This document shows, piece after piece, positions 25,546 through 42,950 of a DNA stretch of 64,000 bases. Each line of letters begins with the position of its first letter. Positions within the stretch are counted from its first letter, which is position 1. This DNA is from Bacteroidota bacterium (GTDB taxonomy: Bacteria > Bacteroidota > Ignavibacteria > Kapaibacteriales > UBA961). Under the pieces are notes generated by a model, which ran no database searches, was not told where the DNA came from, and saw only the letters and a list, made by a program, of their open reading frames with translations. Where the stretch lies: positions 3,539 to 67,538 of the forward strand of contig JBEEPK010000002.1 in the NCBI GenBank assembly GCA_041191145.1. The letters are read 5' to 3'. Both the position numbers and the translations under genes were made by a program.

Positions 25546-26028
25546 ATGTCATCCGGTCCAGTATACATGACCCGCGAAGGTGTTGCGAAAATTGAAGATG
25601 AAATAAAGCAACTCAAGGGAAAGGGAAGAAAGGAAATTGCCGAGAAGATTGCTTATGCACGCTCACATGGTGATTTATCTGAGAATGCCGATTATGATGC
25701 CGCAAAGCATGAGCAGGAATTGCTTGAGATGCGCATTTCAAGATTGGAATCTACTTTGGTAAAAGTGCAAGTTATTGATCCGAAGGACCTTCCAAATGAT
25801 AAAATATATATTCTTTCGAAAGTGAAACTAAAGAACAATAAAACCAGTAAAATGGTTGAATATACATTGGTAAGTGCAGAAGAAGCAGATTTTCAAGCCA
25901 ATAAATTGGCTGTTTCTTCACCTTTGGGTAAAGCATTACTTGGAAAGACAATTGGTGATAAGGTCATAACAAAGGTTCCAGCAGGCGATATCGAGTATGA
26001 AATACTTGAAATTGGAAAAATTGATTGA
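25546..26028 (+). CDS. greA: Transcription elongation factor GreA
   Basis: 'HGDLSENADYDAAK' coiled-coil acidic finger. The internal ATG is preferred to the track start. Confidence 0.85.
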   Translation: MSSGPVYMTREGVAKIEDEIKQLKGKGRKEIAEKIAYARSHGDLSENADYDAAKHEQELLEMRISRLESTLVKVQVIDPKDLPNDKIYILSKVKLKNNKTSKMVEYTLVSAEEADFQANKLAVSSPLGKALLGKTIGDKVITKVPAGDIEYEILEIGKID

Positions 26029-26057
26029 ATTAAACCAAATGGATAGAAACATTGTCT

Positions 26058-26091
26058 AATTCCCGTGATTTCACATGGGAATTTTTTTTTG
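26058..26091 (+). terminator. Rho-independent terminator after greA
   Basis: Hairpin TTCCCGTG-attt-CACATGGGAA (with one G·U pair) followed by a T9 run. Confidence 0.6.
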
Positions 26092-26102
26092 TCGGAGATT
26101 GA

Positions 26103-26657
26103 GTGAAGCCTGAACAAGACATATTAGATCTCCTTGAAAAAGGTAAAACTCATGAGGTTATGTCCATTCTGATGTCGAATTATAAACGATTCGTACATTC
26201 AACGGCAATGCGCTATCTGAAAGATGATGATGATGCAAAAGATGTAACTCAAGAAGTTTTTATTAAAGCTTATAACTCCCTTGATTATTTTCGAGGTGAT
26301 TCCAAGATTCAGACATGGCTCTATGCAATTACTAGAAATCTTTGTTTGAATGCTCTTGACAAAAAGAAAAGAAAAGGAAATGTGATTCATTTGGAAACTT
26401 TGGAAGTATTGTCCGATGAAAGATCAGATAGACTTGTGAATGAATCTGAGTTCTCAAAGTTCTTTAAGGAATGCATGTCCATATTACCTGAAAAACAAAG
26501 AGAAACATTCATATTACGACATGTTGAAGAATTGACATATGAAGAAATCTCCGAAATGCTTGGCACCAGCATTGGTGGACTCAAAGCAAACTATTATCAA
26601 GCAGTACAAAAATTGTCTCAATATCTTTCTTCCAAAAAAGAAGGGAACATACAATGA
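26103..26657 (+). CDS. ECF-subfamily RNA polymerase sigma-70 factor
   Basis: Region 2 'DAKDVTQEVFIKAYNSLDYF' and region 4 'LTYEEISEMLGTSIGGLK'. GTG start. Confidence 0.85.
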   Translation: MKPEQDILDLLEKGKTHEVMSILMSNYKRFVHSTAMRYLKDDDDAKDVTQEVFIKAYNSLDYFRGDSKIQTWLYAITRNLCLNALDKKKRKGNVIHLETLEVLSDERSDRLVNESEFSKFFKECMSILPEKQRETFILRHVEELTYEEISEMLGTSIGGLKANYYQAVQKLSQYLSSKKEGNIQ

Positions 26658-27208
26658 ATAATCATGAAAATATCGAATATTTGTTACCTGATTATATCAA
26701 TGGTACTTTGTCTGAGGATGATATCTATATTGTGGAACAAGCTCTTGCTTCTTCCAAAGACTTGCAACAAAAACACGATGAATTTGTACAAGTATTTAGT
26801 GTATTGAAGCAAGACAATATCATTCAATTGATGAATGATGAGGTAGAATTCGTGGATGTAATCATTCCTCTTAAAGCAAAGAAGAAGATGATAATCCCAA
26901 AGATCATCATCGGAACCACAACTTCAATAGCAGCTTGTTTATTGCTTTGGATTGGTATTAATAACCAAATATCCAGCAATGTTCAAAATGGTGATGTCAA
27001 GAAAATACCTACTATTGAATTGGCTGAGACAATCGATGAATTTACTCCTTTGGAATTACAATCAGAGGATGTGGAAGAAGTGATATTGGATGAACTTCTT
27101 ACATTGTATGTAAGTGATATCGAATCAGGTAAAGAGATCAATCCGCTACTCGAAAATGAAATCACAAATTATCTTTTGCAGGAGAGTTCAGATGAAGAAG
27201 TATTATAA
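26654..27208 (+). CDS. Anti-sigma factor (membrane-spanning)
   Basis: Overlaps the sigma gene by 4 bp. N-terminal 'YLLPDYINGTLSEDD' anti-sigma motif and a central TM helix. Confidence 0.65.
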   Translation: MNNHENIEYLLPDYINGTLSEDDIYIVEQALASSKDLQQKHDEFVQVFSVLKQDNIIQLMNDEVEFVDVIIPLKAKKKMIIPKIIIGTTTSIAACLLLWIGINNQISSNVQNGDVKKIPTIELAETIDEFTPLELQSEDVEEVILDELLTLYVSDIESGKEINPLLENEITNYLLQESSDEEVL

Positions 27209-27644
27209 ACTCATCTGCTTTGCAACACTTTTCATGTTCTTAGGTACTGCTTCGCTTTGTAGTCAAAATCCGGAAAAAATGCGTGAGAGATTGAAGACTT
27301 ATAAAAAGATCATGTTGATGGAAAAACTCAATATGAGCGAAGAACAATCTATTAAGTTTTTTACAAGATACACCGAGTATGAGGAATTCATAAAAAAGGC
27401 CAAAAATGAATTGGATCAATCCGTGGATTTGCTTGAGCAAGTTGTGGAATCAGGGAAGGCAGAAAATGAAAAAGCAATCCAATTGGTCTTTGAGAAAGAC
27501 ATTGCATTGAAAAAAGTCATCATTGAACGAATCAAAGCAATGAAGAATGTACTCAGTGAGAAGCAATATGGGAAGTATGTTCTCCTTGAATATCGCTTAT
27601 TGGATAAAGTTAAAGATGCAGTGAAAAAAAGACGAAAGAAGTAA
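27192..27644 (+). CDS. Periplasmic Spy/CpxP-like (LTXXQ-motif) protein
   Basis: Signal peptide MKKYYKLICFATLFMFLGTASLCS. Helical K/E-rich protein with LxxxQ-type repeats. Third gene of the sigma/anti-sigma module. Confidence 0.5.
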   Translation: MKKYYKLICFATLFMFLGTASLCSQNPEKMRERLKTYKKIMLMEKLNMSEEQSIKFFTRYTEYEEFIKKAKNELDQSVDLLEQVVESGKAENEKAIQLVFEKDIALKKVIIERIKAMKNVLSEKQYGKYVLLEYRLLDKVKDAVKKRRKK

Positions 27645-27653
27645 TGCTATTAA

Positions 27654-28643
27654 TTAAAATTTCAGATAAAGTGAGTCAGAATTATAGAAAAATATATCCT
27701 TTTTTAGCTTAGTATATCTTTGTATATAATGTTCTTTATAATTGAAAGAAGACTCACTTAGTTCATATTGTTTTTTTATGAGAGGGATATAAGTAGAAGG
27801 GTGATAATATTCTAATGTATATTGTTTCAGATATCTTCCTTGATGACCATATTGTGAATAATCATAAATGCACTTTGACTTTGGATTTATATTTAAGGGA
27901 AATTGTTGAAAATCAATAAATCTATAGTATGTACCTAATATTGAAATATAAGTATACCAAGATCCAAATCTATCATGTGTTTCATATACTTGAAAATCTC
28001 TTATCCCATCTAGATTGATGTCTGTATAAATGATTCTGATTGTCTGAGTTAAATCATAATTTAGATAATTGAATTGTTTCTGTTTTATGAACAGTAACAA
28101 TTCTTGCAGAAAATTCTGACCTTTTGGAATTCTGATATTTTGATTTATCCCAAAATCAACAAGAGTAGTTTCAGGGGGGCTGAAGATTGAATTATCATAT
28201 AATATATTGCTTACAAAGACAATCTTTCCGCTTTCTTTATTGTAAACAAGGATTCTCGTTCCATCATACTGAATATATTCATCATTGTAATAATCCTCAT
28301 CTTTCCCTTCAGCAACAACTTTTTTGAGTGTAGGTTTGCGATATGCAGAAATGATATAGGATTGTGCTAGCAATGAATCATGTACAGGGAATATTGCCGA
28401 GTTATGAAAGAATTGATTTTGTATGTTAACCAGATGTGAAGTTAAATCGCAATTCTGGAATTGATACAAATTCAATAATGAAGGAAATACATATGCTTCA
28501 ACTCGCAAGTGTTTATATACATTGTTATGATATTCGAGAAGTGATGATATATTAGTTGTGCACTTATTCATTGTATTTGACTCTATACATGAATAGGTAA
28601 TAAATGAAAATATAGATACAAATAAAAGAATAAAATATTTCAT
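27654..28643 (-). CDS. Hypothetical secreted Tyr/Asn-rich protein
   Basis: Signal peptide. Strongly AT-rich coding sequence. No recognisable motif. Confidence 0.4.
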   Translation of the reverse strand: MKYFILLFVSIFSFITYSCIESNTMNKCTTNISSLLEYHNNVYKHLRVEAYVFPSLLNLYQFQNCDLTSHLVNIQNQFFHNSAIFPVHDSLLAQSYIISAYRKPTLKKVVAEGKDEDYYNDEYIQYDGTRILVYNKESGKIVFVSNILYDNSIFSPPETTLVDFGINQNIRIPKGQNFLQELLLFIKQKQFNYLNYDLTQTIRIIYTDINLDGIRDFQVYETHDRFGSWYTYISILGTYYRFIDFQQFPLNINPKSKCIYDYSQYGHQGRYLKQYTLEYYHPSTYIPLIKKQYELSESSFNYKEHYIQRYTKLKKDIFFYNSDSLYLKF

Positions 28644-28655
28644 GACATTATGTTC

Positions 28656-29660
28656 TTAATTCATGATTTTTGTACCAATCTCAGTCCCACCCCATTCAAT
28701 TACAGTATATCCATTGCGCTTTAATGAGGGTAATTCTTGTTCTTTGATAGGGTTATTAGGTATTTCATGACTATACTCCATAAAGACTCTTATGAGTGTC
28801 TCTGGTTTTGGGGTGATTTCCAAGAATGAAGTATTTCGAATGTTATCATTTATTGAAAAGTGAATAAAACATTCCTCTTTACTCATCATTCTTGGTGCCC
28901 AAAAAGTAATGAAGTCATTAGATTCTAATTTATTTAGACCAAATTGATATAATACTTTCTCTAAAAATGGGATTACATCTTTTGCTTTTATAATGAATCC
29001 TTCATTGAATATATCTCTTGCTAAGCTTTTGTATGATATTCCCTCCCAAAACAAATATCTATGTTCTGTCGAGTCATTTAGGTTTAAAAGTAAACCATCA
29101 GTCTTTGCAAGGACTTTCCAACCATCCAAATATTCCGGATAAGTAAATGTTATCTCACCCAGATAAGTATGCTTGACTTCTGTAATCTGATCTTGTTCGG
29201 GGTAAATGTAGATGACAGGTTTTTTATACATATGTCTTATTGGTAAAGTATCGCAATGAGATATATCAACCATACATTTCGAATTGTTCTTATATGGTAT
29301 TTGGATTTTTGTAGAGCAAGGTGATGAATAGTTCGAATGGGTAATCACCATGATATGACTGTATTGTTGTAATTGTTCTGCATTCAGAGTAACAGAAAAT
29401 TTGGGTTTACTTCTCGACTGGATGAAAAGTGATGAATTATGTTCTGACTCATCATAAAGATAGATGTCATAACTTCCTGTAAATGCAACAGTATCCGTGC
29501 CATGTATTGAATGCACAAGCATTCCAAGCACTTTATGAATGGATTTTGATGATTGTCCATATCCTGACATTGTAGCACTTAGAATCAATAGTAGTATTGT
29601 CAATGATATATGCAGAGTATTGCCACGTTTATTTTGAATCCAATTTAATGATGTATGCAT
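28656..29660 (-). CDS. Hypothetical secreted protein
   Basis: Signal/TM N-terminus. AT-rich. No recognisable motif. Confidence 0.4.
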   Translation of the reverse strand: MHTSLNWIQNKRGNTLHISLTILLLILSATMSGYGQSSKSIHKVLGMLVHSIHGTDTVAFTGSYDIYLYDESEHNSSLFIQSRSKPKFSVTLNAEQLQQYSHIMVITHSNYSSPCSTKIQIPYKNNSKCMVDISHCDTLPIRHMYKKPVIYIYPEQDQITEVKHTYLGEITFTYPEYLDGWKVLAKTDGLLLNLNDSTEHRYLFWEGISYKSLARDIFNEGFIIKAKDVIPFLEKVLYQFGLNKLESNDFITFWAPRMMSKEECFIHFSINDNIRNTSFLEITPKPETLIRVFMEYSHEIPNNPIKEQELPSLKRNGYTVIEWGGTEIGTKIMN

Positions 29661-29799
29661 ATGTAATTCCTATAGACACAAAGATTCAATATTTCAAGTT
29701 CAGACTGACAATGATACTGGAGTACATATACTCATACATTATGATATGAAAAATATAAATGAGCTAGTTTCTGTGAAAGCAGTCAACTTGATTGTTATA

Positions 29800-31617
29800 T
29801 CATTTACCAATATATCTTGCTTCTTCAAGTAATTTTAAATATTCGCCTCTATATCCATCCTCATCATCTCCAAGTCCTGAATTTCCAAGTTCCTTTGCTT
29901 GTTTCCAATTTGCACTACCTTTAAAGGGACTTTCTCTCAATAACATTCCAAATTCAGCTACTGAACATATGAAACGAAAATCATCGCTCACATTTAAGAT
30001 ATTTTTTGGTGTATTGTATACTATCTCTTCAAGAGCATATTCACTATTGTTTTCAGGTTTTTTGTACTTAACATTAATTGTAAGGAGTTCATAATTTGGA
30101 TTATAGCTAATTGGATTTATTGGTAAAAAGTATTTCTTACTTTTTGGACTTGCACAATTACCTAGAATTATTTCGTACAATGCTGTGACACTATGACCAG
30201 AACCCATTTCGCCTGCATCAATCCTTGAATCATCAAAATCTGAGTTTTTTAAACCCCTATTTTCATATCCTATCTGTCTATAACTTGAAACAAAACTTGG
30301 ATTAAATTCTAATTGTGCTTTCACATCTTTCGCAACAGTAAGTAAAGTACCGCGAAATTCTTCGACAAGCACTTTTTTAGCTTCAATCACATTATCAATA
30401 TGGAAATAATTTCCATTTCCTTTGTCAGCAATAATTTCGAGTTTATTATCCTTCAAGTTGTCTAATCCAAATCCTAAAACTGTAATTTCAATCTTATCTT
30501 TACGTAATCGTTCCATCATCCGCTGCATTTCTCCATCACTATTGATCCCCATATTGAAATCGCCATCTGTAGCAACAATTACGCGATTATTTGTCTTGCT
30601 ATTCAAGTTCTTTCTTAGCAATTGATAAGCAGCTTCAATTCCCGGTGCTCCAGGAGTTGCTCCATCTGCTTGCAATTCCTGTATCTTTTGAGAAATATTC
30701 CTCCTATCACTGCAACTTATAGGTTCAAGTACTATGTTGGCTGTACTTCCACTATATGTAACTATCGAGACAACATCATCTTCTCGCAGTTTGTTAAGTA
30801 ATAAATTAAATGCCCTTTTGGCTAATGGTAGCTTCACTTTTGAATCCATTGAACCTGATATATCAATAAGAAGAACCACATTATTCGAAGGACTAATATT
30901 CGTATTGACTTTCTTACTCTTTAAACCTACTTTTAACAATAGTGCATCCTTATTCCATGGACATTTGGTCAATTCAGTATTGAGCATGATATCTTGATTA
31001 TTCTCAGGTTCAGGGTAATCATATGGAAAGTAATTTATGAATTCTTCTATTCTCACAGCGTCAATTGGTAGCCTACGACCTGAATTGATAAAATGTCTTG
31101 CAATGCTGTAGGAAGCTTTATCTACGTCTATTGCAAAGGTTGAAAGTGGTTCTTGTATGACTACATTAAATCCATTCTCATTAATTGGCGAAAAATCATA
31201 TGTAAAGTAACCGCCATAGGAAATTGGAGCAGAAACAGAATGAGCAGTCATAGAAGCACTCCGGGCTTCACTCGCAGAATATATTTGTGGAGAAATCAAT
31301 GTATCGTATGTTCTGTCTGGATTAGAGGATTGCAAATATATCCGCCCTTTAAAATTCGATTTGGCAATGAATGAGTAATTGTTAAATCCCTTAGCAGAAA
31401 CAGTAATTTTATCACCATTTCTTGCATTTATTAAAAAATATCCATTGGATTGAGTTATAACAATATCTTGATTCATTGTGTTTTTGATTGTTGCTGAAGC
31501 AATCGCTGTGCTATCTTTGGCATTTAATACAAATCCATCAATAATCACTCTTGAAGCTTTTTGTGCATGTATTACACATGTTGCACAAATCAATACCGTG
31601 TAAATAATAAAACGCAT
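29800..31617 (-). CDS. von Willebrand factor type A domain protein (YfbK-like, secreted)
   Basis: Signal peptide. Carboxypeptidase-regulatory-like N-domain. MIDAS motif 'VVLLIDISGSMD'. Long YfbK-type C-terminal region. Confidence 0.75.
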   Translation of the reverse strand: MRFIIYTVLICATCVIHAQKASRVIIDGFVLNAKDSTAIASATIKNTMNQDIVITQSNGYFLINARNGDKITVSAKGFNNYSFIAKSNFKGRIYLQSSNPDRTYDTLISPQIYSASEARSASMTAHSVSAPISYGGYFTYDFSPINENGFNVVIQEPLSTFAIDVDKASYSIARHFINSGRRLPIDAVRIEEFINYFPYDYPEPENNQDIMLNTELTKCPWNKDALLLKVGLKSKKVNTNISPSNNVVLLIDISGSMDSKVKLPLAKRAFNLLLNKLREDDVVSIVTYSGSTANIVLEPISCSDRRNISQKIQELQADGATPGAPGIEAAYQLLRKNLNSKTNNRVIVATDGDFNMGINSDGEMQRMMERLRKDKIEITVLGFGLDNLKDNKLEIIADKGNGNYFHIDNVIEAKKVLVEEFRGTLLTVAKDVKAQLEFNPSFVSSYRQIGYENRGLKNSDFDDSRIDAGEMGSGHSVTALYEIILGNCASPKSKKYFLPINPISYNPNYELLTINVKYKKPENNSEYALEEIVYNTPKNILNVSDDFRFICSVAEFGMLLRESPFKGSANWKQAKELGNSGLGDDEDGYRGEYLKLLEEARYIGK

Positions 31618-31745
31618 ACACTCTCCTAAAAAATAACCCTAACAAGGTACATTACTTTATATTGTAAATATTTTAAGTCTTTGATGAAAAAGGGGATGTC
31701 CCAGTCAATAAATCACAAACTAGTACTTAAATAGTAAAATGAAAA

Positions 31746-31772
31746 CAAAAAATCCCCATAAGGGGATTTTTT
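31746..31772. terminator. Bidirectional rho-independent terminator
   Basis: A6-ATCCCC-ataa-GGGGAT-T6, immediately 3' of the rsmI-like stop. Confidence 0.7.
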
Positions 31773-31775
31773 CAA

Positions 31776-33515
31776 TTAGTACTTTCTTCTTGGTGGCTTC
31801 ATTCCTGATGAGGAATCGGATGTTCCCTTATACTTCTTTTTATCTTTTGAGTCAAAAGAAGGTTTTCCACCGAACTTCCTGTCTCTACCTCCACTTCTCT
31901 CGGAATATGAATCTCCATCGCGTTTTCTGAATCCACCGGAATCTCCATCGCGTTTTCTGAATCCGCCGGAATCGCCATCGCGCTTTTTGTATCCACCAGA
32001 ATCTCCATCGCGCTTTTTGTATCCACCGGAATCTCCATCGCGTTTTCTGTAACCACTGGAATCTCCATCGCGTTTTCTGTATCCACCGGAATCTCCATCG
32101 CGCTTTTTGTAACCCCCTGAATCACCATCGCGTTTTCTGAATCCGCCGGAATCGCCATCACGCTTTTTGTATCCGCCGGAATCGCCATCGCGCTTTTTGT
32201 ATCCACCGGAATCACCATCGCGTTTTCTGTATCCGCCAGAATCACCATCGCGTTTTCTGAATCCACCGGAATCGCCATCGCGCTTTTTGTATCCACCGGA
32301 ATCACCATCGCGTTTTCTGTATCCGCCAGAATCACCATCGCGTTTTCTGAATCCACCGGAATCACCATCGCGTTTTCTGAATCCGCCGGAATCGCCATCG
32401 CGTTTTCTGAATCCACCGGAATCACCATCGCGTTTTCTGAATCCGCCGGAATCGCCATCACGCTTTTTGTATCCACCGGAATCACCATCGCGCTTTCTGA
32501 ATCCGCCGGAATCGCCTTCACGTTTTCTGTATCCGCCGGAATCGCCATCACGCTTTCTGTATCCACCGGAATCGCCTTCACGTTTTCTGTATCCGCCGGA
32601 ATCGCCTTCGTGCTTTTTAAAATCGACCGATTCTTCATCACTATTGCTATAGCTATCTAACTCATCTTCGTGGATATCAATATCTTGCTTTATAGGCAAT
32701 GAATCTTCATCAGCTTCAAAAAGCTCATCATGAGTTTCTTCTGAAACTTTCAACTTTTTAGAATCGCTGATAGCAATGCGTTCTTTCTTCTTTTCGAAAT
32801 TTGACAATACGCTAAGAAGTGTTCTTCCGGGATGACCTTCAAACACTATCACGAATTCACCCTTGAAAGGTGTATCGGTAAATGCTTGATGAAGTTCTGA
32901 AAATGTGCCATAATGATGATGTTCAAAGGACATTGTTAGATTACATCCGATATAAGCTTTACGATCGGGCATCACTTTTGCAGCTGCTTCAAGGATTTGT
33001 TTTAGTCGATAGGGAGTTTCAAGAAGAACAGTTGTTCTTGGTTCCAGTGCAAGCGCTTGCATTTCCATTAATCTGTCTTCTGTGGTTCTGCTCAAGAAAC
33101 CTGCGCAGGTAAAAACATCAGATTTAAAACCACTTCGTACTAGTGCTGTCATAATAGAACTTGGACCGGGAACTACGACGATATTGATATTCGCATCCAA
33201 TGCCAGATTCAAAAAGTACCTACCTGGATCGGCAAATATGGGAGTTCCTGCATCTGAGATCAAAGCAAATGATTCTCCATTTTGGAGTCTTTCGATCAAT
33301 TGAGGAGCATATTCATCTTCATTATGCTCATTGAGTTGTTCGAGATTTGCACTGAAGTTATGTCTTTTTGCAAGCAAAGCTCCAATTTTCTCTTCTTCAC
33401 AAATAACTGTATCCACTTTCTTCAGTACTTTCAAAGCACGAAGTGAGATGTCATCCTCATTACCAATTGGTGTTGAAACGATGTATAATACCGACTGTTC
33501 TTGCTTCTTCCGCAT
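31776..33515 (-). CDS. rsmI: 16S rRNA (cytidine1402-2'-O)-methyltransferase RsmI fused to a ~340-aa acidic linker plus a tail of ~24 decapeptide repeats
   Basis: The N-terminal ~230 aa have the tetrapyrrole-methylase fold motifs ('LYIVSTPIGNEDDIS', 'SDAGTPIFADPG'). One continuous ORF then continues through (D/E)GDSGG(Y/F)(R/K)KR x ~24. Confidence 0.75.
   Translation of the reverse strand: MRKKQEQSVLYIVSTPIGNEDDISLRALKVLKKVDTVICEEEKIGALLAKRHNFSANLEQLNEHNEDEYAPQLIERLQNGESFALISDAGTPIFADPGRYFLNLALDANINIVVVPGPSSIMTALVRSGFKSDVFTCAGFLSRTTEDRLMEMQALALEPRTTVLLETPYRLKQILEAAAKVMPDRKAYIGCNLTMSFEHHHYGTFSELHQAFTDTPFKGEFVIVFEGHPGRTLLSVLSNFEKKKERIAISDSKKLKVSEETHDELFEADEDSLPIKQDIDIHEDELDSYSNSDEESVDFKKHEGDSGGYRKREGDSGGYRKRDGDSGGYRKREGDSGGFRKRDGDSGGYKKRDGDSGGFRKRDGDSGGFRKRDGDSGGFRKRDGDSGGFRKRDGDSGGYRKRDGDSGGYKKRDGDSGGFRKRDGDSGGYRKRDGDSGGYKKRDGDSGGYKKRDGDSGGFRKRDGDSGGYKKRDGDSGGYRKRDGDSSGYRKRDGDSGGYKKRDGDSGGYKKRDGDSGGFRKRDGDSGGFRKRDGDSYSERSGGRDRKFGGKPSFDSKDKKKYKGTSDSSSGMKPPRRKY
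31890..32630. repeat. Tandem 30-bp coding repeat (~24 copies) inside the rsmI-like gene
   Basis: Near-identical units 'CCATCGCG(T/C)TTT(C/T)TG(A/T)ATCC(A/G)CC(G/A)GAATC(T/G/A)' read directly from the sequence. They cause the shadow ORFs in the other frames. Confidence 0.85.
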
Positions 33516-35188
33516 TAAAATCCTGTGTGGAGTATGAGTGATGATGAATACTGTGTTGAATAAATTGTCAACATCCGCATTGCATTAGGTATATCATGTT
33601 GAATGGAAATGGTAGCATTCAAACCATCCCATTGTATGTTTTGTGTGTAGTCTTGTAACTCTTTCCCTTGCATGTCAAAAAGTTTCACAATGCACTGTTC
33701 TCTTTTTGGAAGTGAGAAGGTAATCACTTGTTTTCTTGATTCAAGGGCAGGGTTAGGGAATGCATTGACTAATGGAGTCATCACATATTCAGAAATTGAA
33801 TTTGCATTTCCCTGAGTTGAAATAGGAATCGACAAAGTTGGTATACCATCTGCAAAGCGAAGTCTGAGGAGCGTTGCCGACTCAATGGGAGATTTCATTA
33901 TAAGTGAAAGATATTGCATCGTACCGGGTTTAATAATACTATCAAAAGGTAAAACCCTTGCATTGGAAATGGTTGGTCTGAATTCCGTGGAATTGATTTT
34001 CAATGATTGATTCCCTTTATTGATTACAGGAATGCGCATAAGCATGGAATCGCCGGAAACAATTTGTGCAAATACTCCAAGTGAATCCGTTACCGGTTCA
34101 GGATATAATGGAAAATCAGGTTGTGTTGAGAGTCTGAACATTCGATCGATCATATTAGGATGAGCGATATATGGATTCATTCTTTTCTGAACGGAAGCGA
34201 TAGACATTCCACGGCTTCTTTCTCGCTCATCAACAGGATCTTGCTTATTCCATGTTCTGATAATGGTTTCCATATTGGTTAGAAAACCACTTTGGTCAAA
34301 GCTTCCTTTACGATTGCCATAACGAGTTGCGAAATATAAGATACCACGAGCAATATTGCCTTTCATGATATCTCGTGGTTCAAAAACTGTATCGGCTGAG
34401 GATTGTGGAAGTCCTAATGTAGAGCCACCGGATTCCCAAGAAATGGAACGAGAAACTATGCCAAATGGATGATTTGATCTTTTTTCATTTGCTTTTGAGT
34501 CAGTAGGGTACAAATGAAAAATATCAGATCTGGCAGGTTCTTTATCGGCTCCTTTGCTTTGTGGCCAAGAATGTTCGGTATTGAACACACTCGCATTTGG
34601 AATGCCGGTTGTTTGAATCTTGCGTCCTGTATAAGCACATTCCACAGTCCCATTCACATTGTCTGCTTTTGAGAACATATGTTGTCTTGCATCTGTATAT
34701 GTAAACATGAGTGCCTGGTTCAGGTAAGCATTAAGGGCATTGTATAATGCCTGACCTTCCAAGTCTTGCGTGAATGCAAATTCTGGTTCTGAATACTCAG
34801 CTCTACCTTTTAGTTTTACAGCCAATGAATACCGCGTTTCAGGACAAGTGACGCGTAAAAGTAGATGTCCAATATGCGTGATATTATGCGGGGTTTTGAA
34901 AGATAGAGGCAATTCTTGTTTTTGACCCGGCTGAATGGTTATGGAACCGGATTGCAAAACTGAAAACACAGGCCAACGAGAATATGTAAAAACGGTATCT
35001 ATTCTAATCAATGAACTCGAAGTATTGGTAATAGTAAGAATCTTAATGCTTTCATCACCCGTCAATACAGTACCAAAATCAATTGAGTCTGCTGATATTG
35101 TAATCCTACAGGGCAATTCATTTGCAATCATTGATTGAAAATGATGCATTCCAAGAATCATCAGTAATATTGAGATTATTATTTTCAT
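33515..35188 (-). CDS. Extracellular endonuclease I family nuclease with T9SS C-terminal sorting domain
   Basis: Signal peptide. Endonuclease_1 motifs 'FNTEHSWPQS' and 'DIFHLYPTDSKANEKRSNHPFG'. C-terminal 'AFPNPALESRKQVITFSL...VKLFDMQGKEL' matches a Por_Secre_tail pattern. Confidence 0.7.
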   Translation of the reverse strand: MKIIISILLMILGMHHFQSMIANELPCRITISADSIDFGTVLTGDESIKILTITNTSSSLIRIDTVFTYSRWPVFSVLQSGSITIQPGQKQELPLSFKTPHNITHIGHLLLRVTCPETRYSLAVKLKGRAEYSEPEFAFTQDLEGQALYNALNAYLNQALMFTYTDARQHMFSKADNVNGTVECAYTGRKIQTTGIPNASVFNTEHSWPQSKGADKEPARSDIFHLYPTDSKANEKRSNHPFGIVSRSISWESGGSTLGLPQSSADTVFEPRDIMKGNIARGILYFATRYGNRKGSFDQSGFLTNMETIIRTWNKQDPVDERERSRGMSIASVQKRMNPYIAHPNMIDRMFRLSTQPDFPLYPEPVTDSLGVFAQIVSGDSMLMRIPVINKGNQSLKINSTEFRPTISNARVLPFDSIIKPGTMQYLSLIMKSPIESATLLRLRFADGIPTLSIPISTQGNANSISEYVMTPLVNAFPNPALESRKQVITFSLPKREQCIVKLFDMQGKELQDYTQNIQWDGLNATISIQHDIPNAMRMLTIYSTQYSSSLILHTGF

Positions 35189-35925
35189 AAAGGTAATTTT
35201 CCTTCCATTGCATTCCATGTATCGCTAATTGCTTGTGCAATTTCGGAAAATTCACATGAATACCCGAAACATTCCGACAAGCAGGTTGAATGTGAAACAA
35301 TGTTCTGCTTCAAAATCGATTGTTCTTCCTGATCATTTGTGAGTAGCTTCACAATATCTAGATATGATTGATCCAAGGGAAGAGAACCATGTTGAAGAAG
35401 CACTCCGTCAAAGAATCTTTGAGCACTTCCCATGAGTTTTTTGCCATTGCAGGTAAGTTCATATCGAGCAGATGAAGAGAAACATGCAGAAGAAACTTGA
35501 AGTGCATAATGCTCATTGAAATCCGCATTGGATTTTGCAAAATCCAGATTCTTAACTCCTATGCCATCAAGAGCTCTTAAAAAAAATGCATGAATTTCTC
35601 TGTACGCATTTCTCGCAATATCCATCGAATCACAAGGCATGACAATACAATATGTCAATTCATTGGAATGTAAAACTGCTCTTCCACCGGTGGGTCTTCT
35701 GACAATTGGAATATCGAGTGATGCACAATTGACTTCAATATCGCGGGAAATCACTTGGTTTTTTCCAAGCGACAAAGTTGGCTTGTCCCATCCATATATT
35801 CGAAAATGACCTGTTACATCTTTATTGTTTCGCAAAGCAATTGACATTGTCTCCGCTTGCGTGAAGTCCAAGAGCATATTTTGTTCACCGGACAAAAATC
35901 CGCTCTCCATGAAGGTCCATTTCAT
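35185..35925 (-). CDS. Lipoate--protein ligase family protein (BPL/LplA/LipB catalytic domain)
   Basis: 'RRPTGGRAVLHSNELTYCIVMP' motif of the lipoyl/octanoyl transferase family. Confidence 0.6.
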   Translation of the reverse strand: MKWTFMESGFLSGEQNMLLDFTQAETMSIALRNNKDVTGHFRIYGWDKPTLSLGKNQVISRDIEVNCASLDIPIVRRPTGGRAVLHSNELTYCIVMPCDSMDIARNAYREIHAFFLRALDGIGVKNLDFAKSNADFNEHYALQVSSACFSSSARYELTCNGKKLMGSAQRFFDGVLLQHGSLPLDQSYLDIVKLLTNDQEEQSILKQNIVSHSTCLSECFGYSCEFSEIAQAISDTWNAMEGKLPL

Positions 35926-36887
35926 GATTCGTCTTCAATATTGTCCAAACTATCCATGATTTCTCGACATGTCATTTCATCTCGATGCAATTGATCTTTC
36001 AAATGATTGAGTGATGCGAATGCTTGTTCTTCTCGGATATATTTCAAGAACCAAATAACCAATTGTGTATCATACAAATCTTCATTTACATCAAAGAAAT
36101 GTACTTCGAGTGATATTTGATCAGTAACTCCTACAGTCGGTCTATTCCCGATATTTGCCATCCCATAAACAGTTATGCCATTGATATCAGTCGAAACAAA
36201 ATACACCCCTTTTCTGGGAAATAACTTGTAATGAATCGCAGGTTTGATATTTGCCGTTGGAAAACCGATTGTTCTGCCTCTTTGATCACCTTTTATAACG
36301 ATGCCTTCAATGAAATAAGGATGACCAAGCATATCAAATGCTTCGGGTAAATTACCATTTGAAAGTGCTTTGCGAATCTCTGTACTGCTCACTGTTTTAT
36401 GATCGATGACATAAGGCTCGATTGGATGTACGGTGAACTGCAATTCCTCTGAAAGTGCATGAAGCGTATTTGCTCCTCCTTCACGAGCTTTGCCGAATCC
36501 ATGATCATGGCCTATGAAGATGTCTGAAAAACCAATCTTTTCATGAATATATGTTCTAATGAATTCATCGGATGAAGTCTGTGCAAATTCCTTGGTGAAT
36601 GGAATGATCACCACCATGTCAATCCCATAAGATTCAAGCAATTGCAATCGCTCGGAAATATCGCTCAGTAAAGTAATCGGGGGTTTGTCTTTTCTTGGGA
36701 TGACAGTTTGAGGATGCGGATCAAAAGTGACTATAACTGTGCGTGCATCTTTCTTCTTCTGTTGTAAAGTCAACATTGATTCAATTATGAATTGATGTCC
36801 TTTATGCACTCCGTCAAATGTTCCAACAGTGATGATAGTATTATTGTCATGCGGAATTGCATCATGTAATGTAAAAACTTCCATCAT
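35922..36887 (-). CDS. ribF: Bifunctional riboflavin kinase/FAD synthetase
   Basis: 'VGTFDGVHKGHQ' nucleotidyltransferase motif and a C-terminal flavokinase domain. Overlaps truB by 4 bp. Confidence 0.9.
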   Translation of the reverse strand: MMEVFTLHDAIPHDNNTIITVGTFDGVHKGHQFIIESMLTLQQKKKDARTVIVTFDPHPQTVIPRKDKPPITLLSDISERLQLLESYGIDMVVIIPFTKEFAQTSSDEFIRTYIHEKIGFSDIFIGHDHGFGKAREGGANTLHALSEELQFTVHPIEPYVIDHKTVSSTEIRKALSNGNLPEAFDMLGHPYFIEGIVIKGDQRGRTIGFPTANIKPAIHYKLFPRKGVYFVSTDINGITVYGMANIGNRPTVGVTDQISLEVHFFDVNEDLYDTQLVIWFLKYIREEQAFASLNHLKDQLHRDEMTCREIMDSLDNIEDES

Positions 36888-37645
36888 TCCGCCGAAATAT
36901 GTAATGATTGAAACTCTTCAGCTTGCATCACATGCATAGCTTGCTCAAATTCGCGAATATCCAAGGCATCTTCCACTGAAAAATCACCACTTGAAATTCG
37001 TCTGAGTGCAGTCAAATACCCAACTGTACCTAACTTTTCAGCAATATCCCTTGCAAGTGATCTTATATAGGTGCCTTTTGAACATTGTACGGTAATCGTC
37101 AAGTGAATTCCATCAAATGCATCTAGAGTTACATACTCAATATGGATGTCTCTGGGTTCAATCTCGACTTGAATACCCTTTCGCGCTTTATGATAAAGTG
37201 GGATTCCATTCTTTTTAAGTGCGGAATACATTGGTGGAATCTGTTTTGTATTACCGGTAAATGAATGCAATACTTCTCTGATTGTCTCTTCACTCAAATG
37301 ATGGGGAATATCGACAAAGACAGATTCAGGACTTTCTGAATCTAGAGACACAGTTGAGGCACCAAGTTTAATGGTTGCGATATATGCTTTGTGGCTATTC
37401 TGATAGGTGGAAATCAATTTTGTTGCTTGTCTTCCAATGCATACGATCAATAATCCGGTGGCAAGGGGATCGAGCGTTCCGGCATGACCAATCTTTTTGA
37501 TTCCGACTATTCTTCTGAGTTTAGCCACGACATCAAATGAAGTCCATGAAATTTCTTTGTCAATGAATATAATAGCTCCATTTTCCCGAGCATCAGCATA
37601 CCATTGCTTGAGAGAAGCCAAAGATTGTTTGGTGAGAATATTCAT
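36884..37645 (-). CDS. truB: tRNA pseudouridine(55) synthase
   Basis: 'GHAGTLDPLATGLL' catalytic Asp motif. Confidence 0.9.
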   Translation of the reverse strand: MNILTKQSLASLKQWYADARENGAIIFIDKEISWTSFDVVAKLRRIVGIKKIGHAGTLDPLATGLLIVCIGRQATKLISTYQNSHKAYIATIKLGASTVSLDSESPESVFVDIPHHLSEETIREVLHSFTGNTKQIPPMYSALKKNGIPLYHKARKGIQVEIEPRDIHIEYVTLDAFDGIHLTITVQCSKGTYIRSLARDIAEKLGTVGYLTALRRISSGDFSVEDALDIREFEQAMHVMQAEEFQSLHISAE

Positions 37646-37694
37646 GGAATAAAGGGAAGAAATGAATCAGCATCAGAGAGTAAATCGCCTGAAA

Positions 37695-38066
37695 TTACTC
37701 GGACGCGTGACCATCACGAAGGCGATCATTTTTCTTTGTTTGTTCAACAAGGTTTTGAATTTGTTCCATTGCATCCATTGTTTCATCACGATAAAATCGT
37801 AATTCCGGAGCAAAACGAAGCTGAACCTTGGATGCGACATGTTTTCTGATCGCATGTTTTTCTTCATCAATGGCATATAGAACATCAGCAACCGATGCTT
37901 TTCCGCCGATAGCACTGATATACACTTTTGCTATTTGTAAATCAGGTGACATCTTGACAGATGTCACCGTGATTAACCCTGCTCTTTTTTCAGAAGCAAT
38001 TCTTCGAAGAGGTTCGGACAATGCTTCCATTATGACTGAAGCTACTTTTTCAGTTCTGATCGACAT
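37695..38066 (-). CDS. rbfA: Ribosome-binding factor A
   Basis: KH-like 'ITVTSVKMSPDLQIAKVYIS' motif. Sits between infB and truB. Confidence 0.9.
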   Translation of the reverse strand: MSIRTEKVASVIMEALSEPLRRIASEKRAGLITVTSVKMSPDLQIAKVYISAIGGKASVADVLYAIDEEKHAIRKHVASKVQLRFAPELRFYRDETMDAMEQIQNLVEQTKKNDRLRDGHASE

Positions 38067-38067
38067 A

Positions 38068-40998
38068 TTAGCTTAATTTCCTTTTGACTTCAACTTGCTT
38101 ATAAGCTTCGATGATATCTCCGACTTGAATGTCATTGAAACCATTGATGCTCATACCACATTCATAGTTGCTATCAACTTCTCTCACATCATCTTTGAAG
38201 CGTTTGAGTGCGGACAATGTTGAATTATAAACAGGGAAGCCGTCTCGCAGAACACGAACACGATCATTTCTATTGATTTTACCAGATGTTACATAACAAC
38301 CAGCAACAGTTCCAATTTTGCTAATCTTGAATACTTGGCGAATCTCTGCTGCACCGGTGATTTCTTCTTTAATCTCGGGGGAGAGAAGTCCTTCGAGTGC
38401 CATTTGAATTTCATTGATACAGTCATAGATGATTGTATACAATCGTATGTCAACACCTTCATTTTCTGCTGATTTACGAGCTTGTGATGTTGGTGAAACA
38501 TGGAAACCAACCACAACTGCACTGGATGCAGCTGCCAACATGACATCCGACTCTGAGATTGGTCCGACACCTTTGTGAAGAATCGTAACCTTGGCTTCAT
38601 CTCTAGAAAGTTTCTGCAATGAATCAGACAATGCTTCCAATGAACCACTAACATCACCTTTGATGATAAGTCGCAATTCTTTTGTTCCACCACGCAAGAT
38701 ATCTTGAGAAATCTCATCGAGGGTGGTTGGTCGCATTTGCTTGAATGTTTGTTCGCGCTTGAGTTGTTGTCTCTTGGTTGCAATTGCTCTCGCTTCGGTT
38801 TCTTGTTCAAGTACTGCAAATAAATCACCTGCCTGAGGAGCGCCATCAAAACCAGATACTTGAACGGGAACAGATGGACCTGCTTTCTCAACACGATTTC
38901 CGCGTTCATCAAACATTGCACGAACTCTACCGGAATAAATACCTGCTACGAATGCATCACCAATGGAAAGCGAACCTTTTTGAACCATAACGGTTGCCAA
39001 AACACCCTTTCCTTTGTCTAGATGAGCTTCAATAACTGTACCTCTCGCAATGCGGTCAGGATTTGCTTTAAGATTCAAAATCTCCGCCTCTAAGAGAATC
39101 TTCTCCATGAGACCTTCAATATTGATACCTTTCTTTGCAGAAATATGAGCACATTGATATTTTCCGCCCCATTCTTCAACCAATACACCGCGATCTGCTA
39201 ATTGTTGCTTCACGCGATCAGGATTTGCATCTTCTTTGTCGATTTTATTCAATGCAACAACAATGGGAACATTGGCTGCTTGAGCATGGCTGATGGCTTC
39301 TATTGTTTGAGGCATAACATTGTCATCGGCTGCAACAACAAGAACGACGATATCAGTTACTTGAGCTCCTCTGGCACGCATTGCTGTAAATGCTTCATGT
39401 CCGGGAGTATCAAGGAAAGCAATTGTACGACCATCGGGCAAATCAACATGATAAGCGCCAATATGCTGAGTAATACCACCAGATTCACCGGCTACAACAT
39501 TAGCTTTTCTGATATAATCGAGAAGTGATGTCTTACCATGATCCACATGACCCATGATGGTAACTATCGGTGGACGAGTTACAAGTGTATCTTCTGCATC
39601 TTCAATGTCTGTGATCTCTTGTGCGGCTTGTTCATCTAGGAATTCTACTTGGAATCCATAATCATCAGCAATCAATGTAATTGTGTCTTTGTCGAGTCTT
39701 TGATTAATGCTCACCATTAATCCCAAAGACATACACTTTACGATGATTTCTGCAGCTGTTGTGCCCATCAGTGCAGCAAGATCGGCAGTAGTCACAAATT
39801 CAGTTAGGCGGAGAATTGTACTTTCGCGTTCAACTTCTTCAATACGGCGAGCCTCTTTTTCTTCGCGCTCCATTTTCTTTCTTTGCTTGAGCTTATTTCT
39901 GAAACCGGAACCGGAATCTTCCATGCCGGATAGGGTTTCACGAATTGCTCTTGTTACATCCTCTTCGGTGATTGTCTCACGAATGGATTTCTTTTTCTTT
40001 TTCTTCTTATCTATTCCTTTCGCATCTTTTGGAGGTGCTGGACGAAGATTCTTCTTTGCTGCTTTGTCTTTATCTTCCTCCGTTTTGGCTGGAGCAAGAC
40101 CTAATCCACCCTCTTGACCTTTAGCGCGAAGTCTTTCGCCGATGGATTGCTGATTTCCTGCTGTAGGTCTATTTGGCCTACGATCATTATCTCTACTATC
40201 TCTACGCTCTCCACCTGCACCTTGTTGTTGCTGTGGACGATCTCCGGTTTTTTTTGCATTTCGATCGGGACGACCATATCTGCCACCTTCTTCTCTGCGA
40301 GAGGAGACATCAATTTTTCCAACAACAGTTAAGCCACGAAGCTGAGGCATTGCTCCTGCTTCATACTCAACTTCCATGATGCGTTTCTTTCTCTTCTTTT
40401 TTGGATCTTTGGAGTCATCTTCTTGAGATACTGCTTCAGATTCCACCGGAGTAGTATTTTCGACTACCTCTTCAGCTTCCTTGACAACTTCAACTTCAGG
40501 TGTCTTTATCTCTACTAGTTCGGCTACTGGTATAGTCTCAGGTTGTGGCTCGATTTCTTTTTTGATTTCAATATGAATTGTTTCCGGCTCAGAAGGCTCG
40601 GGCATGACTTCCGGTTCAGATGCTACTTCTTCAATTGGAGCCTCAATGATTTTCTCTTTCGATTCAACCATTACCGGTTCTTCAATTTCTACAGGTATAT
40701 TAGTAACGGGAATTTCTTCAATGATCGCTTCTTCAATATGTGACGATTCTTCAGAATCACCCTTTTCAGGATTGCGAGCATGATGATATTTTTCTAGTTT
40801 CTCTCTCTGCTTTTCAGCTGCTTTCGCTTCACGGGCAAATTTGTCCATGACTACTTCCACCATCTCATCATTTAAGACAGATGTTGGTTTGTTTTCAATG
40901 GTGAATCCTTTTCCTTGAAGGAATTCAACAATGGCATCCTTCCCAATATTAATCTGGGAGGCAAGCTTAAAAAGACGTGTTCCGTTAGATGCAGGCAT
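38068..40998 (-). CDS. infB: Translation initiation factor IF-2
   Basis: G-domain 'IMGHVDHGKTSLLD' and 'DTPGH' motifs. Long charged N-terminal region. Confidence 0.95.
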   Translation of the reverse strand: MPASNGTRLFKLASQINIGKDAIVEFLQGKGFTIENKPTSVLNDEMVEVVMDKFAREAKAAEKQREKLEKYHHARNPEKGDSEESSHIEEAIIEEIPVTNIPVEIEEPVMVESKEKIIEAPIEEVASEPEVMPEPSEPETIHIEIKKEIEPQPETIPVAELVEIKTPEVEVVKEAEEVVENTTPVESEAVSQEDDSKDPKKKRKKRIMEVEYEAGAMPQLRGLTVVGKIDVSSRREEGGRYGRPDRNAKKTGDRPQQQQGAGGERRDSRDNDRRPNRPTAGNQQSIGERLRAKGQEGGLGLAPAKTEEDKDKAAKKNLRPAPPKDAKGIDKKKKKKKSIRETITEEDVTRAIRETLSGMEDSGSGFRNKLKQRKKMEREEKEARRIEEVERESTILRLTEFVTTADLAALMGTTAAEIIVKCMSLGLMVSINQRLDKDTITLIADDYGFQVEFLDEQAAQEITDIEDAEDTLVTRPPIVTIMGHVDHGKTSLLDYIRKANVVAGESGGITQHIGAYHVDLPDGRTIAFLDTPGHEAFTAMRARGAQVTDIVVLVVAADDNVMPQTIEAISHAQAANVPIVVALNKIDKEDANPDRVKQQLADRGVLVEEWGGKYQCAHISAKKGINIEGLMEKILLEAEILNLKANPDRIARGTVIEAHLDKGKGVLATVMVQKGSLSIGDAFVAGIYSGRVRAMFDERGNRVEKAGPSVPVQVSGFDGAPQAGDLFAVLEQETEARAIATKRQQLKREQTFKQMRPTTLDEISQDILRGGTKELRLIIKGDVSGSLEALSDSLQKLSRDEAKVTILHKGVGPISESDVMLAAASSAVVVGFHVSPTSQARKSAENEGVDIRLYTIIYDCINEIQMALEGLLSPEIKEEITGAAEIRQVFKISKIGTVAGCYVTSGKINRNDRVRVLRDGFPVYNSTLSALKRFKDDVREVDSNYECGMSINGFNDIQVGDIIEAYKQVEVKRKLS

Positions 40999-41070
40999 AC
41001 AACCTATGGTTGAATGTTAAAAAAAAACGAATGCATGAACTTTCATGCAATATTCCGGCTACAGGCTCAA

Positions 41071-42423
41071 TTATTCTGCAGAATCTTCATCTGCAGTTGA
41101 ATCATCCGGAAAAGTATTGGCTACAAGAATCGCATCGCGAATCTCGGATCTTTCTTGTTCTTCAAATTCAGACAATATGATGTCTCTGATTTCAAGAAGA
41201 GTGTTCTTTGTCATGCCGGGTATTTCCAGCAAATCATAAATATCGGCATCAAGGAATTCTCTTGCTGTGTCAATTCCAAGATTAATGATATTCTCATACA
41301 TTTCTTTACCGATTTCATCTCTGAATTCGATAAGCTCGATGTCTTCTCCACCTTCTTTGATCAATGTGATATTGTAGCCTGTCAATTTGGATGCAAGGCG
41401 AACATTTTGTCCATTGCGACCAATGGCAAGGGAAACCTGATCATCGGGCACAACAACGGTTGCAGATCTTGTTTCTGTGGATACAACGATATCACGAATG
41501 CGTGCTGGAGCCAATGCCTTCGCAATGAAAACTTTTGGATCCGCTGAATATTCAATCACATCAATGTTTTCATTGTTCAGTTCGCGAACGATTGAGTGAA
41601 TGCGAATTCCTTTCATTCCTACGCAAGCGCCCACAGGATCGACTCTTTCATCATATGATAATACAGCAACCTTGGCTCTTTCTCCGGGATCACGAGCGAT
41701 GGACTTGATTTCTATGATTCCATCATATACTTCGGGGATTTCAATTTCAAAAAGGCGTGCGAGGAATTCATCAGCAGATCTGGAAACGATGATGTCAGGC
41801 GTGCCACTGCCTTGCATTCTACGTACTTCCTTGATAACTGCCTTGATGGACATATTTTTCTTATATCGCTCATTGTGAATCTGTTCTTCTCGTGGCATGC
41901 GCATTTCATTTTTATTGTGCATGATGAGAAGACTTCCTGGGCGAACTTGATATACTTCACCTACAATGATTTCACCGACTTTGTCATTGAATTCATTGAA
42001 AATATTGTCCTTTTCAACATCACGTATTCTTTGTCCCAAAGTTTGAGTGGCAAGCGCAATCAATCTTCTTCCAAAGTTATCTGAAATGTTTTCAAGGGTG
42101 ATTTCTTCAATAAATTCATCGCCGATCTCATACGCTTCTTCGGAACGAGATTGTATTTCTTTCATGGAGATTTCCAGAGAAGGATCTTCCACCTCTTCAA
42201 CGATTGTACGCATGAGATAGATTTCCAAATCACCTTTGTCCATGTTTACAACGATGTCGAAATTAGCTTCCTGACCATACTTTTTTCTAATCAGCATGGA
42301 GAGTGTTTCGACAAGCATACCTTGCAATAGGTCTTTGTCAATGCTTTTTTCTCTTGCCATTTCTGCGAATGCTTCGATGATAAGCTTTTTGTCGTACTTA
42401 GGTTTGACTTTACGGCGTGCCAT
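41071..42423 (-). CDS. nusA: Transcription termination/antitermination factor NusA
   Basis: S1, KH1 and KH2 motifs. Acidic C-terminal repeats. Confidence 0.95.
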   Translation of the reverse strand: MARRKVKPKYDKKLIIEAFAEMAREKSIDKDLLQGMLVETLSMLIRKKYGQEANFDIVVNMDKGDLEIYLMRTIVEEVEDPSLEISMKEIQSRSEEAYEIGDEFIEEITLENISDNFGRRLIALATQTLGQRIRDVEKDNIFNEFNDKVGEIIVGEVYQVRPGSLLIMHNKNEMRMPREEQIHNERYKKNMSIKAVIKEVRRMQGSGTPDIIVSRSADEFLARLFEIEIPEVYDGIIEIKSIARDPGERAKVAVLSYDERVDPVGACVGMKGIRIHSIVRELNNENIDVIEYSADPKVFIAKALAPARIRDIVVSTETRSATVVVPDDQVSLAIGRNGQNVRLASKLTGYNITLIKEGGEDIELIEFRDEIGKEMYENIINLGIDTAREFLDADIYDLLEIPGMTKNTLLEIRDIILSEFEEQERSEIRDAILVANTFPDDSTADEDSAE

Positions 42424-42464
42424 TGTGTTGACTATGTGTAATGTGATACTATCTATGCAATCTA

Positions 42465-42950
42465 TTACAGCGAAATGAGAACGATTGCTTTATGAATTTC
42501 TGAATAGGGTAAAGAGAATGTCGTATCTTCGTCGGCCTTGTTCTTGCTTTTCTTCTTCGGCTGTTGAACAATGAGTTTCTGTTCATCAGCTTCAAGCAAT
42601 GTCAATGATTCGGTGATTTGAGCATCTTCTTTTGTATATGTCAATTCTAGTGTTCTGCCTATATTCCTAGGAAATTGCCACCAGTGAATCAGCGGTCTAT
42701 CAGTCCCCGGAGAAGAAACTTCTATGCTGCGGACAGCATCCAAAAAGGCATTGGACTCAGCTTCGATAAGTAATGCACGATTGATTGACTCGCATTGCTC
42801 AAGTGAAATTCCTGCTGGTGTATCCACATATAATTCAAGAATCATGCGCTCTTTTGTTCCTCGCAAAACAACATCTATCAGCGTTGCATGCTGTGCTGAA
42901 CAAGCAGATTCTAATATTGGGCGGATATCGCCAGGTAATTCCAATGGCAT
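42465..42950 (-). CDS. rimP: Ribosome maturation factor RimP
   Basis: Immediately upstream of nusA. 'LELYVDTPAGISLEQCE' motif. Confidence 0.85.
   Translation of the reverse strand: MPLELPGDIRPILESACSAQHATLIDVVLRGTKERMILELYVDTPAGISLEQCESINRALLIEAESNAFLDAVRSIEVSSPGTDRPLIHWWQFPRNIGRTLELTYTKEDAQITESLTLLEADEQKLIVQQPKKKSKNKADEDTTFSLPYSEIHKAIVLISL

Follow-up and report, generated by a model that had tools for sequence, protein, structure and literature searches.

The gene considered here, the predicted rsmI of an uncultured freshwater bacterium of the Kapaibacteria/Ignavibacteria group, lies in a 64,000-nt stretch of contig JBEEPK010000002.1 (referred to below as the window) and raises the question of why a putative 16S rRNA C1402 2′-O-methyltransferase should end in a long tandem array of decapeptides. 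The comparisons reported below suggest that the answer begins with position: as judged from alignments and profile searches, the tail sits where the C-terminal domain (CTD) of canonical RsmI should be, a main point that was missed in the preliminary description of the locus. Across a whole branch of RsmI, the exchange of this domain for a disordered tail seems to be the norm, and it seems to be undescribed. Within that clade the gene is not exceptional, being an especially regular version with 23 units.

The RsmI core and the missing C-terminal domain

The N-terminal part of the protein was assigned with the Pfam model TP_methylase (PF00590), which covers aa 10–208 (E 2.6e-30), and with the NCBIfam equivalog model of RsmI (TIGR00096), which matches aa 9–230 with 174.4 bits against a cutoff of 167.9. 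The core is ~36–37% identical to canonical E. coli RsmI, and the best Foldseek matches in the PDB were the RsmI structures 9pzg, 3kwp and 5hw4. Residues E44, T19, P20, N23, D92, F144 and R174 of the E. coli enzyme correspond to E40, T15, P16, N19, D88, F140 and R170 of the query, positions at which alignment A1 shows little or no variation; the same E. coli positions, together with E203, are kept in all RsmI groups compared. Like the canonical enzyme (E. coli YraL; 5HW4, 9PZG), the query therefore has the TP_methylase N-terminal domain (NTD) and core with the conserved catalytic, metal and h44-pocket residues. The protein is identical to the homolog P0002, and the NCBI/JGI annotation reads either 16S rRNA (cytidine1402-2′-O)-methyltransferase or hypothetical protein. 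The ORF (open reading frame) and the domain matches bear out the earlier observation that a single ORF unites an RsmI-type core, an acidic linker and a decapeptide array rich in Gly, Arg/Lys and Tyr/Phe.

It had also been proposed that the RsmI-type domain of about 230 aa was complete. This holds for the NTD and core and fails for the canonical CTD, which is absent: the alignment to TIGR00096 ends at profile position 224 of 275, and that to E. coli RsmI (9pzg, 5hw4) ends at the IVEGH motif, which reads FEGH at query aa 230. The Pfam model RsmI_C (PF23016) had no match in the query or in the other tailed proteins, with weak matches in canonical enzymes of 285–288 aa. A custom hidden Markov model (HMM) of the CTD was built from the C-terminal 45–75 residues of 31 canonical RsmIs and run with the HMMER filters off (E <1e-3); it matched 0 of 165 tailed proteins, as against 31 of 31 training sequences and five independent canonical CTDs. 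The linker that follows the core has no similarity to the canonical linker or CTD, though it is in the same position.

A structure was predicted by running AlphaFold2 on the query with a 98-sequence alignment. The predicted local distance difference test score (pLDDT) was above 90 in the core and below 50 from aa 272 to 573, and the earlier claim of a disordered tail is in keeping with this model. Between the two a helix was predicted at aa 233–260 (pLDDT 79–91), with an acidic disordered stretch after it. This helix was considered as a remnant of the CTD or as a dimerisation element and was rejected, since the CTD HMM does not recognise it and only the nearest relatives conserve it.

The loss of this domain bears on how the enzyme meets its substrate. 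In E. coli RsmI the CTD consists of the final 42 residues, folded into three helices, and in the cryo-EM structure of RsmI on the 30S subunit the CTD of the auxiliary protomer of the dimer docks on U697–A702 of 16S h23b; deletion of the CTD or of helix alpha3 leaves virtually no activity (bioRxiv 10.1101/2025.08.28.672957). According to the same study, R196 and K200 contact G1405 and C1404, and K200A lowers and K200E eliminates activity. The residues named in that paper were mapped via the query–E. coli alignment onto alignment A1. Of 24 canonical enzymes, 22 have R at position 196 and 23 have K at position 200; of 67 tailed ones, 63 have C or M at the first of these positions (C191 in the query) and 63 have M or L at the second (M195 in the query). 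D45 and R47 are replaced by E and K in tailed enzymes, a change that is shared by the short forms of RsmI, which also lack R196 and K200. The folded core has a median net charge of −5 in tailed enzymes versus 0 in canonical ones. With the core acidic and R196 and K200 replaced, positive charge is gone from the folded parts and has been gained in the tail. The query thus differs from canonical RsmI in lacking the 42-aa CTD, in R196→C and K200→M, and in having a predicted disordered repeat tail of ~345 aa instead.

It should also be noted that the presence of the CTD co-varies sharply with the residues at R196, K200, D45 and R47, which are h44-interface positions and constitute a candidate signature for two RsmI subfamilies.

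The repeat array, its reading frame and its copy number

Tandem Repeats Finder (TRF) detected a single array at 31909–32610 with a period of 30, 23.4 copies, 87% matches and 0% indels, and this is the only sizeable tandem repeat within the window. A degenerate 29-nt pattern of the unit gave 23 in-register matches and none elsewhere in the 64 kb, with 0 expected (100 shuffles). The translated consensus is D-G-D-S-G-G-[YF]-[RK]-K-R, of which there are 23 complete copies followed by a stub, DGDS, where 24 copies had been counted previously; the linker, given before as about 100 aa, is 70 aa long with a net charge of −11. The DNA units, which had been called near-perfect and almost identical, have a mean pairwise identity of 0.87 (range 0.73–1.0). 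They vary at seven of the ten third codon positions, and the residue changes are only D/E, Y/F and R/K exchanges plus one G/S. Recent expansion or homogenisation was therefore overstated, given the third-position differences and a unit order that is conserved between strains. It is proposed that the array arose by tandem duplication inside rsmI. A relationship to the MSCRAMM Ser-Asp repeat adhesins was considered and dismissed as compositional, the NCBIfam scores being 24–28 bits against cutoffs of 999–2500.

The relatives show that the array is truly part of rsmI: in over 14 homologs with assemblies independent of one another, the frame runs without a break from the core to the same unique C-terminal segment. 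A scan of metagenomes with the DNA unit returned nine stretches, one of which (L017) was unreadable; in all eight with a readable repeat ORF this ORF was rsmI, and for this reason the unit is not considered a mobile module. Since the same frame recurs in the independent homologs and in the readable metagenome loci, the fusion is not an assembly frameshift, and a frameshift or stop between methyltransferase and repeats, the objection that the preliminary description had raised against itself, is contradicted. It is extremely improbable that the array is mis-assembled or conceals a frameshift or stop such that the tail is never made. Such an artefact would fit with the several contigs of metagenome-assembled genomes (MAGs) that break off inside the array (L002–L006, L011, L012 and L015/L019), and a collapse of the 30-bp repeat stays in frame, so that assemblies cannot verify copy number. 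Against it, besides the shared frame and C-terminal segment, the query gene terminates at a stop with a terminator right after it, and the occurrence of analogous tailed RsmI proteins on contigs of 3.28 Mb and 4.23 Mb means that such tails exist in very contiguous assemblies. Because the array breaks short-read assemblies, the rsmI genes of these MAGs often bear the annotation partial or hypothetical, or are split between contigs.

An antisense ORF (32167–32652, +; 161 aa) with the repeat YPPESPSRFL spans part of the array. It was rejected as the coding frame, as stops interrupt that frame within the array and, in all relatives, it is the sense frame alone that joins RsmI to the conserved C-terminus.

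The close homologs range from 459 to 639 aa, with length steps of exactly 10 aa, and as assembled the array holds 10–30 units across the lineage. One close locus (L007) has flanks 97–99.9% identical to the window and two units fewer; in another (L008) the identity is 98.3% across 7.5 kb, interrupted by one 30-nt gap. Maps of unit order give the same picture: P0010 corresponds to the query minus units 2–3, P0248 to P0003 plus one unit, and P0260 to P0003 minus 13 units. Whole-unit differences of this kind, read from the sequences, are the expected signature of slippage or unequal exchange, and the copy-number variation that had been anticipated for the locus is thus seen between near-identical strains. 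Since 30 bp is divisible by three and the units belong to the coding sequence, every variant keeps the frame; what varies is length, and there is no on/off switch. A phase-variable contingency locus was rejected on the same ground, since gain or loss of a unit never shifts the frame.

Tails across the subfamily and the setting of the gene

A search was carried out with the core only (aa 1–235), which keeps the tail from biasing the outcome, against 1.84 billion cluster representatives. Among the 65 closest 50%-identity clusters (at least 47% identity), 64 are proteins of 324–693 aa with the core at the N-terminus, and the remaining one is 277 aa long with a 31-aa basic tail; nearly all 65 have basic, repeat-rich tails, of 59–459 aa. 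Below 47% identity the matches comprised a short group (226–248 aa), a canonical group (275–300 aa), and a group with an N-terminal extension and a Gly-rich tail. Members of the last kind (P0160–P0171 and P0199; 39–47% core identity, 460–757 aa) have an N-terminal extension of 70–185 aa and often a tail with up to 40% Gly.

Tail statistics were compiled for 64 proteins, namely the query and 63 representative clusters. The median tail length is 226 aa and the median net charge +20, and the last 15 aa have a median charge of +5. The tail is net positive in 56 of the 64, and its distal third is more basic than its proximal third in 58. Significant internal periodicity was present in 47 of the 64 tails with periods of 5–40 aa, from which it follows that repeats arose many times independently, and the units are lineage-specific (for example DDGGYKKR, SRDRKDSRGGSGF, DRKPREFGDKPYS and ERRPDGERSGGFNR). 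The sequence of the tail is not conserved across lineages; its composition and charge architecture are. Basic, low-complexity tails are thus the rule in the CTD-less subfamily, and the architecture is not the unusual one it had been taken for. The related caveat that the tail might prove to be a widespread, already annotated domain was right as to the first part, the tail being widespread, and wrong as to the second, as no Pfam or NCBIfam domain model covers it. A match of the Pfam model PF23348 (RDM3_C) to the relatives P0036–P0040 was discarded as a compositional artefact (26 bits against a cutoff of 35), and a literature search on disordered tails of RsmI found nothing relevant among the papers it covered.

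The turnover of the tails invites the explanation that a C-terminus freed by the loss of the CTD has simply filled up with repeats prone to slippage, nearly neutral and without a specific function. Complete change of tail sequence, period and length between lineages would be expected from such runaway expansion, as would copy numbers that vary between near-identical strains and the existence of short forms almost devoid of a tail. This explanation is nonetheless considered quite unlikely. A tail is found in 64 of the 65 closest clusters, and the tails converge in composition, in the prevalence of net positive charge and of the charge gradient counted above, and in a basic terminus. Basic/aromatic motifs occur in the last 30 aa of 58 of 165 tails, compared with 10.7 ± 3.1 in shuffles, a count uncorrected for relatedness. 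In addition, the substitutions within the units are all conservative and the frame is kept in all assemblies. Composition and charge pattern, more than exact sequence or length, appear to be what is under selection. A specific C-terminal motif, KP[FY][RK]K, was also tried; it occurs in only 10 of 165 tails and is lineage-restricted (above shuffles, again uncorrected for relatedness), and only the broader description of a basic, aromatic terminus was retained.

The end of the query reads GMKPPRRKY, and the motif GM[KR]PPR[KR][KR][YS] is common to nearer relatives whose unit is DDGGYKKR. A search of proteins with the tail alone gave six matches: five proteins that contain an RsmI methylase domain and a fragment of 290 aa whose tail ends alike. 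Taken with the metagenome scan, these matches make the unit specific to rsmI. The tail search revealed no other carrier family among 24 candidates, at a sensitivity so poor that even P0001–P0012 were missed.

An end motif that is conserved across relatives with different units (from P0018 to P0035), together with the strongly basic terminus of the family as a whole, would fit a target other than rRNA. In that case the tail would serve polyphosphate, DNA or the nucleoid, the membrane or a partner protein that reads the basic end, with the array as a flexible spacer, and the D/S/K-rich units are loosely like polyphosphate-interacting sequences. This explanation is decidedly improbable: the end motif is lineage-restricted, the 30S subunit is the only known substrate of the enzyme, and no conserved partner gene stands beside rsmI. 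Close strains have the same genes directly beside rsmI, more distant tailed lineages have others, and the context for that reason says little about the tail. The features of the locus are collected in Table 1.

Table 1. Positions of rsmI, its parts and the neighbouring genes in the window
Feature	Position	Strand	Remarks
rimP	42465–42950	−	
nusA	41071–42423	−	
infB (IF2)	38068–40998	−	
truB	36884–37645	−	
ribF	35922–36887	−	
lipoate-protein ligase	35185–35925	−	
Ig-domain, secreted-type Endonuclease I (Endonuclease_1)	33515–35218	−	
rsmI	31776–33515	−	579 codons + stop; the ORF scan matches the coordinates of the preliminary description exactly
NTD + core methyltransferase, aa 1–232	32820–33515	−	Pfam, TIGR00096, alignment to 9pzg/5hw4, AlphaFold2, Foldseek
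Proximal linker, aa 233–302	32610–32819	−	70 aa, net charge −11
Decapeptide array, aa 303–532	31920–32609	−	23 in-register 30-bp / 10-aa units
Truncated 24th unit (DGDS) + unique basic end, aa 533–579	31779–31919	−	net charge +7
Intrinsic-terminator-like hairpin	31747–31772	−	11-bp stem, then T run; begins 4 nt past the rsmI stop

The rsmI gene is the last of a co-directional run starting at rimP (33515–42950 upstream, −), with a YfbK/VWA gene downstream, and its ATG overlaps the stop codon of the upstream Endonuclease_1 gene by one base. The run from rimP to rsmI could be a translation-related operon with an odd insertion of a secreted nuclease. An Rfam scan of the whole window found nothing in the rsmI region, the only match at the gathering threshold being a tRNA at 62012–62086 (−). 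The G+C content falls to 0.32–0.35 in the interval 26001–32000, compared with 0.38–0.42 elsewhere in the window, and this dip takes in the YfbK/VWA gene. Within the same run, IF2 contains at aa ~80–340 an acidic E/P/V-rich stretch followed by a basic, low-complexity one rich in R/G/Q/D (RREEGGRYGRPDRNAKKTGDRP). It is the only other ORF of the window with a 40-aa segment of at least 60% G/R/K/D/E, and it has the same acidic-then-basic order as the tail of RsmI.

A possible role of the tail in holding RsmI to 16S rRNA

The composition of the tail sets limits on what it could do. Each unit holds three basic and two acidic residues (net +1) and one aromatic per ten residues, and the array as a whole consists of G (30%), D (19%), R (17%), K (13%), S (10%) and Y+F (10%). 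Its net charge is +23, the fraction of charged residues (FCR) 0.50, the net charge per residue (NCPR) +0.10 and kappa low to moderate at 0.11–0.17. With two acidic residues beside three basic ones in each unit, the array is a strong polyampholyte and not the simple polycation that its description as a polycationic tail implied. The complete tail of 347 aa is made up of the acidic linker (−11), the ampholytic array (+23) and the basic end (+7). It had furthermore been likened to RGG-type tails, a likeness that does not extend to the defining motif: the query tail is Gly-rich, basic (R+K 30%), aromatic-punctuated and predicted to be disordered, yet RGG and RG motifs were each counted 0 times in it, and three or more RGG are present in only 13 of the 63 representative subfamily tails.

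Disordered, charged, low-complexity extensions on RNA-acting catalytic cores are also found on the RhlE/DeaD helicases and RNase E, and in RhlE such regions strengthen the binding and unwinding of RNA and promote the formation of condensates (PMC11260450). These proteins belong to other catalytic families, and the query differs from them in its regular decapeptides with +1 per unit; docking microdomains of the RNase E type are not evident in it. The N-terminal glycine- and arginine-rich (GAR) domain of fibrillarin offers a second comparison, as it places a Gly-rich, basic, aromatic-punctuated disordered domain on an rRNA 2′-O-methyltransferase (PMC7194090, PMC9957100). Fibrillarin is a Rossmann class I enzyme, whereas the query is a TP_methylase of class III, and the GAR domain is N-terminal and defined by RGG/RG, whereas the tail of the query is C-terminal and has none. 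The resemblance is an analogy only.

These precedents, with the bacterial ribonucleoprotein bodies (BR-bodies) of RNase E (PMC11321048), lend themselves to the suggestion that the tail acts as a chain of stickers and spacers that would phase-separate with nascent rRNA or pre-30S particles and so concentrate RsmI in a kind of mini-nucleolus, a suggestion that overlaps with the anchor proposed below. The array has suitable features, with an aromatic residue every ten positions, Gly/Ser spacers and charge micro-blocks that alternate at the FCR and kappa given above, in a tail modelled as disordered. A length of at least 230 aa and a tolerance of 10–30 units would likewise suit valency better than a fixed tether. 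A condensate is still regarded as unlikely, since RsmI is presumably of low abundance, RGG/RG motifs are missing and well-mixed charge disfavours strong self-coacervation; the same subfamily also includes short-tailed members.

The favoured explanation, which is given about an even chance, is that the disordered tail serves as a multivalent anchor to rRNA or the 30S subunit and substitutes for the lost CTD. Tethering to rRNA had been put forward from the outset and is plausible. According to this proposal, the CTD was lost in this RsmI subfamily and a disordered tail became attached at the same point. The tail would bind 16S rRNA on the 30S or pre-30S particle through electrostatic contacts and aromatic stacking that are multivalent and nonspecific for sequence, and would provide the distal binding energy and capture radius that otherwise come from the contact of the CTD with h23b. 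It would also offset the loss of the basic core residues R196 and K200, now C and M, with the folded core still unwinding h44 and methylating C1402. More speculatively, the acidic proximal segment may mask or moderate the basic part while the enzyme is not on the ribosome. As 10–30 units are tolerated, valency and composition would matter more than exact length. The basic disordered tails of bacterial RhlE helicases, which raise RNA binding and unwinding (PMC11260450), may serve as an analogy for such an anchor.

Several observations weigh against the anchor. The tail of ~345 aa far exceeds the distance to h23b, beyond any reach needed for that contact, so that its length is left unexplained if the tail simply stands in for the CTD. 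The short-form CTD-less RsmIs of the Bacteroidota type (226–248 aa; Bacteroides 3FFY/3FQ6) also have no CTD and share the R196/K200 and D45/R47 substitutions with the query, and many of them end in a short Arg/Lys-rich peptide; they have 0–23 extra residues against 347 in the query, with no acidic linker and no tandem repeats. Should these short forms be active, a changed core would not strictly need a long tail. The two acidic residues per unit weaken the picture of a pure polycation on RNA. The copy numbers come from metagenome assemblies in which breaks in the array are frequent, and a collapse by the assembler would mimic slippage. Finally, the synonymous fraction between units is 0.67 in the RsmI frame as against 0.81 in an antisense frame with coinciding third positions, and such a comparison does not by itself single out the coding frame. 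The higher value in the antisense frame is also a caution for the calling of frames in repeats in general.

A more far-reaching form of the proposal, in which the CTD has been swapped for a fast-evolving disordered polyampholyte that recruits the enzyme to the nascent 30S subunit in a multivalent, condensate-like manner, as a bacterial counterpart of the GAR domain of fibrillarin, is rather unlikely. If true, it would imply that in Ignavibacteria, Kapaibacteria and other Bacteroidota the late steps of 30S maturation are organised in a nucleolus-like way. A large clade without the CTD and without two basic residues of the core, nearly always with a long, basic tail predicted to be disordered, represents a natural experiment in which a folded contact may have given way to disordered, multivalent recognition of the substrate. 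It also provides a bacterial setting for asking what disordered tails do on enzymes of ribosome biogenesis, whether as tethers, as RNA chaperones or as drivers of condensates.

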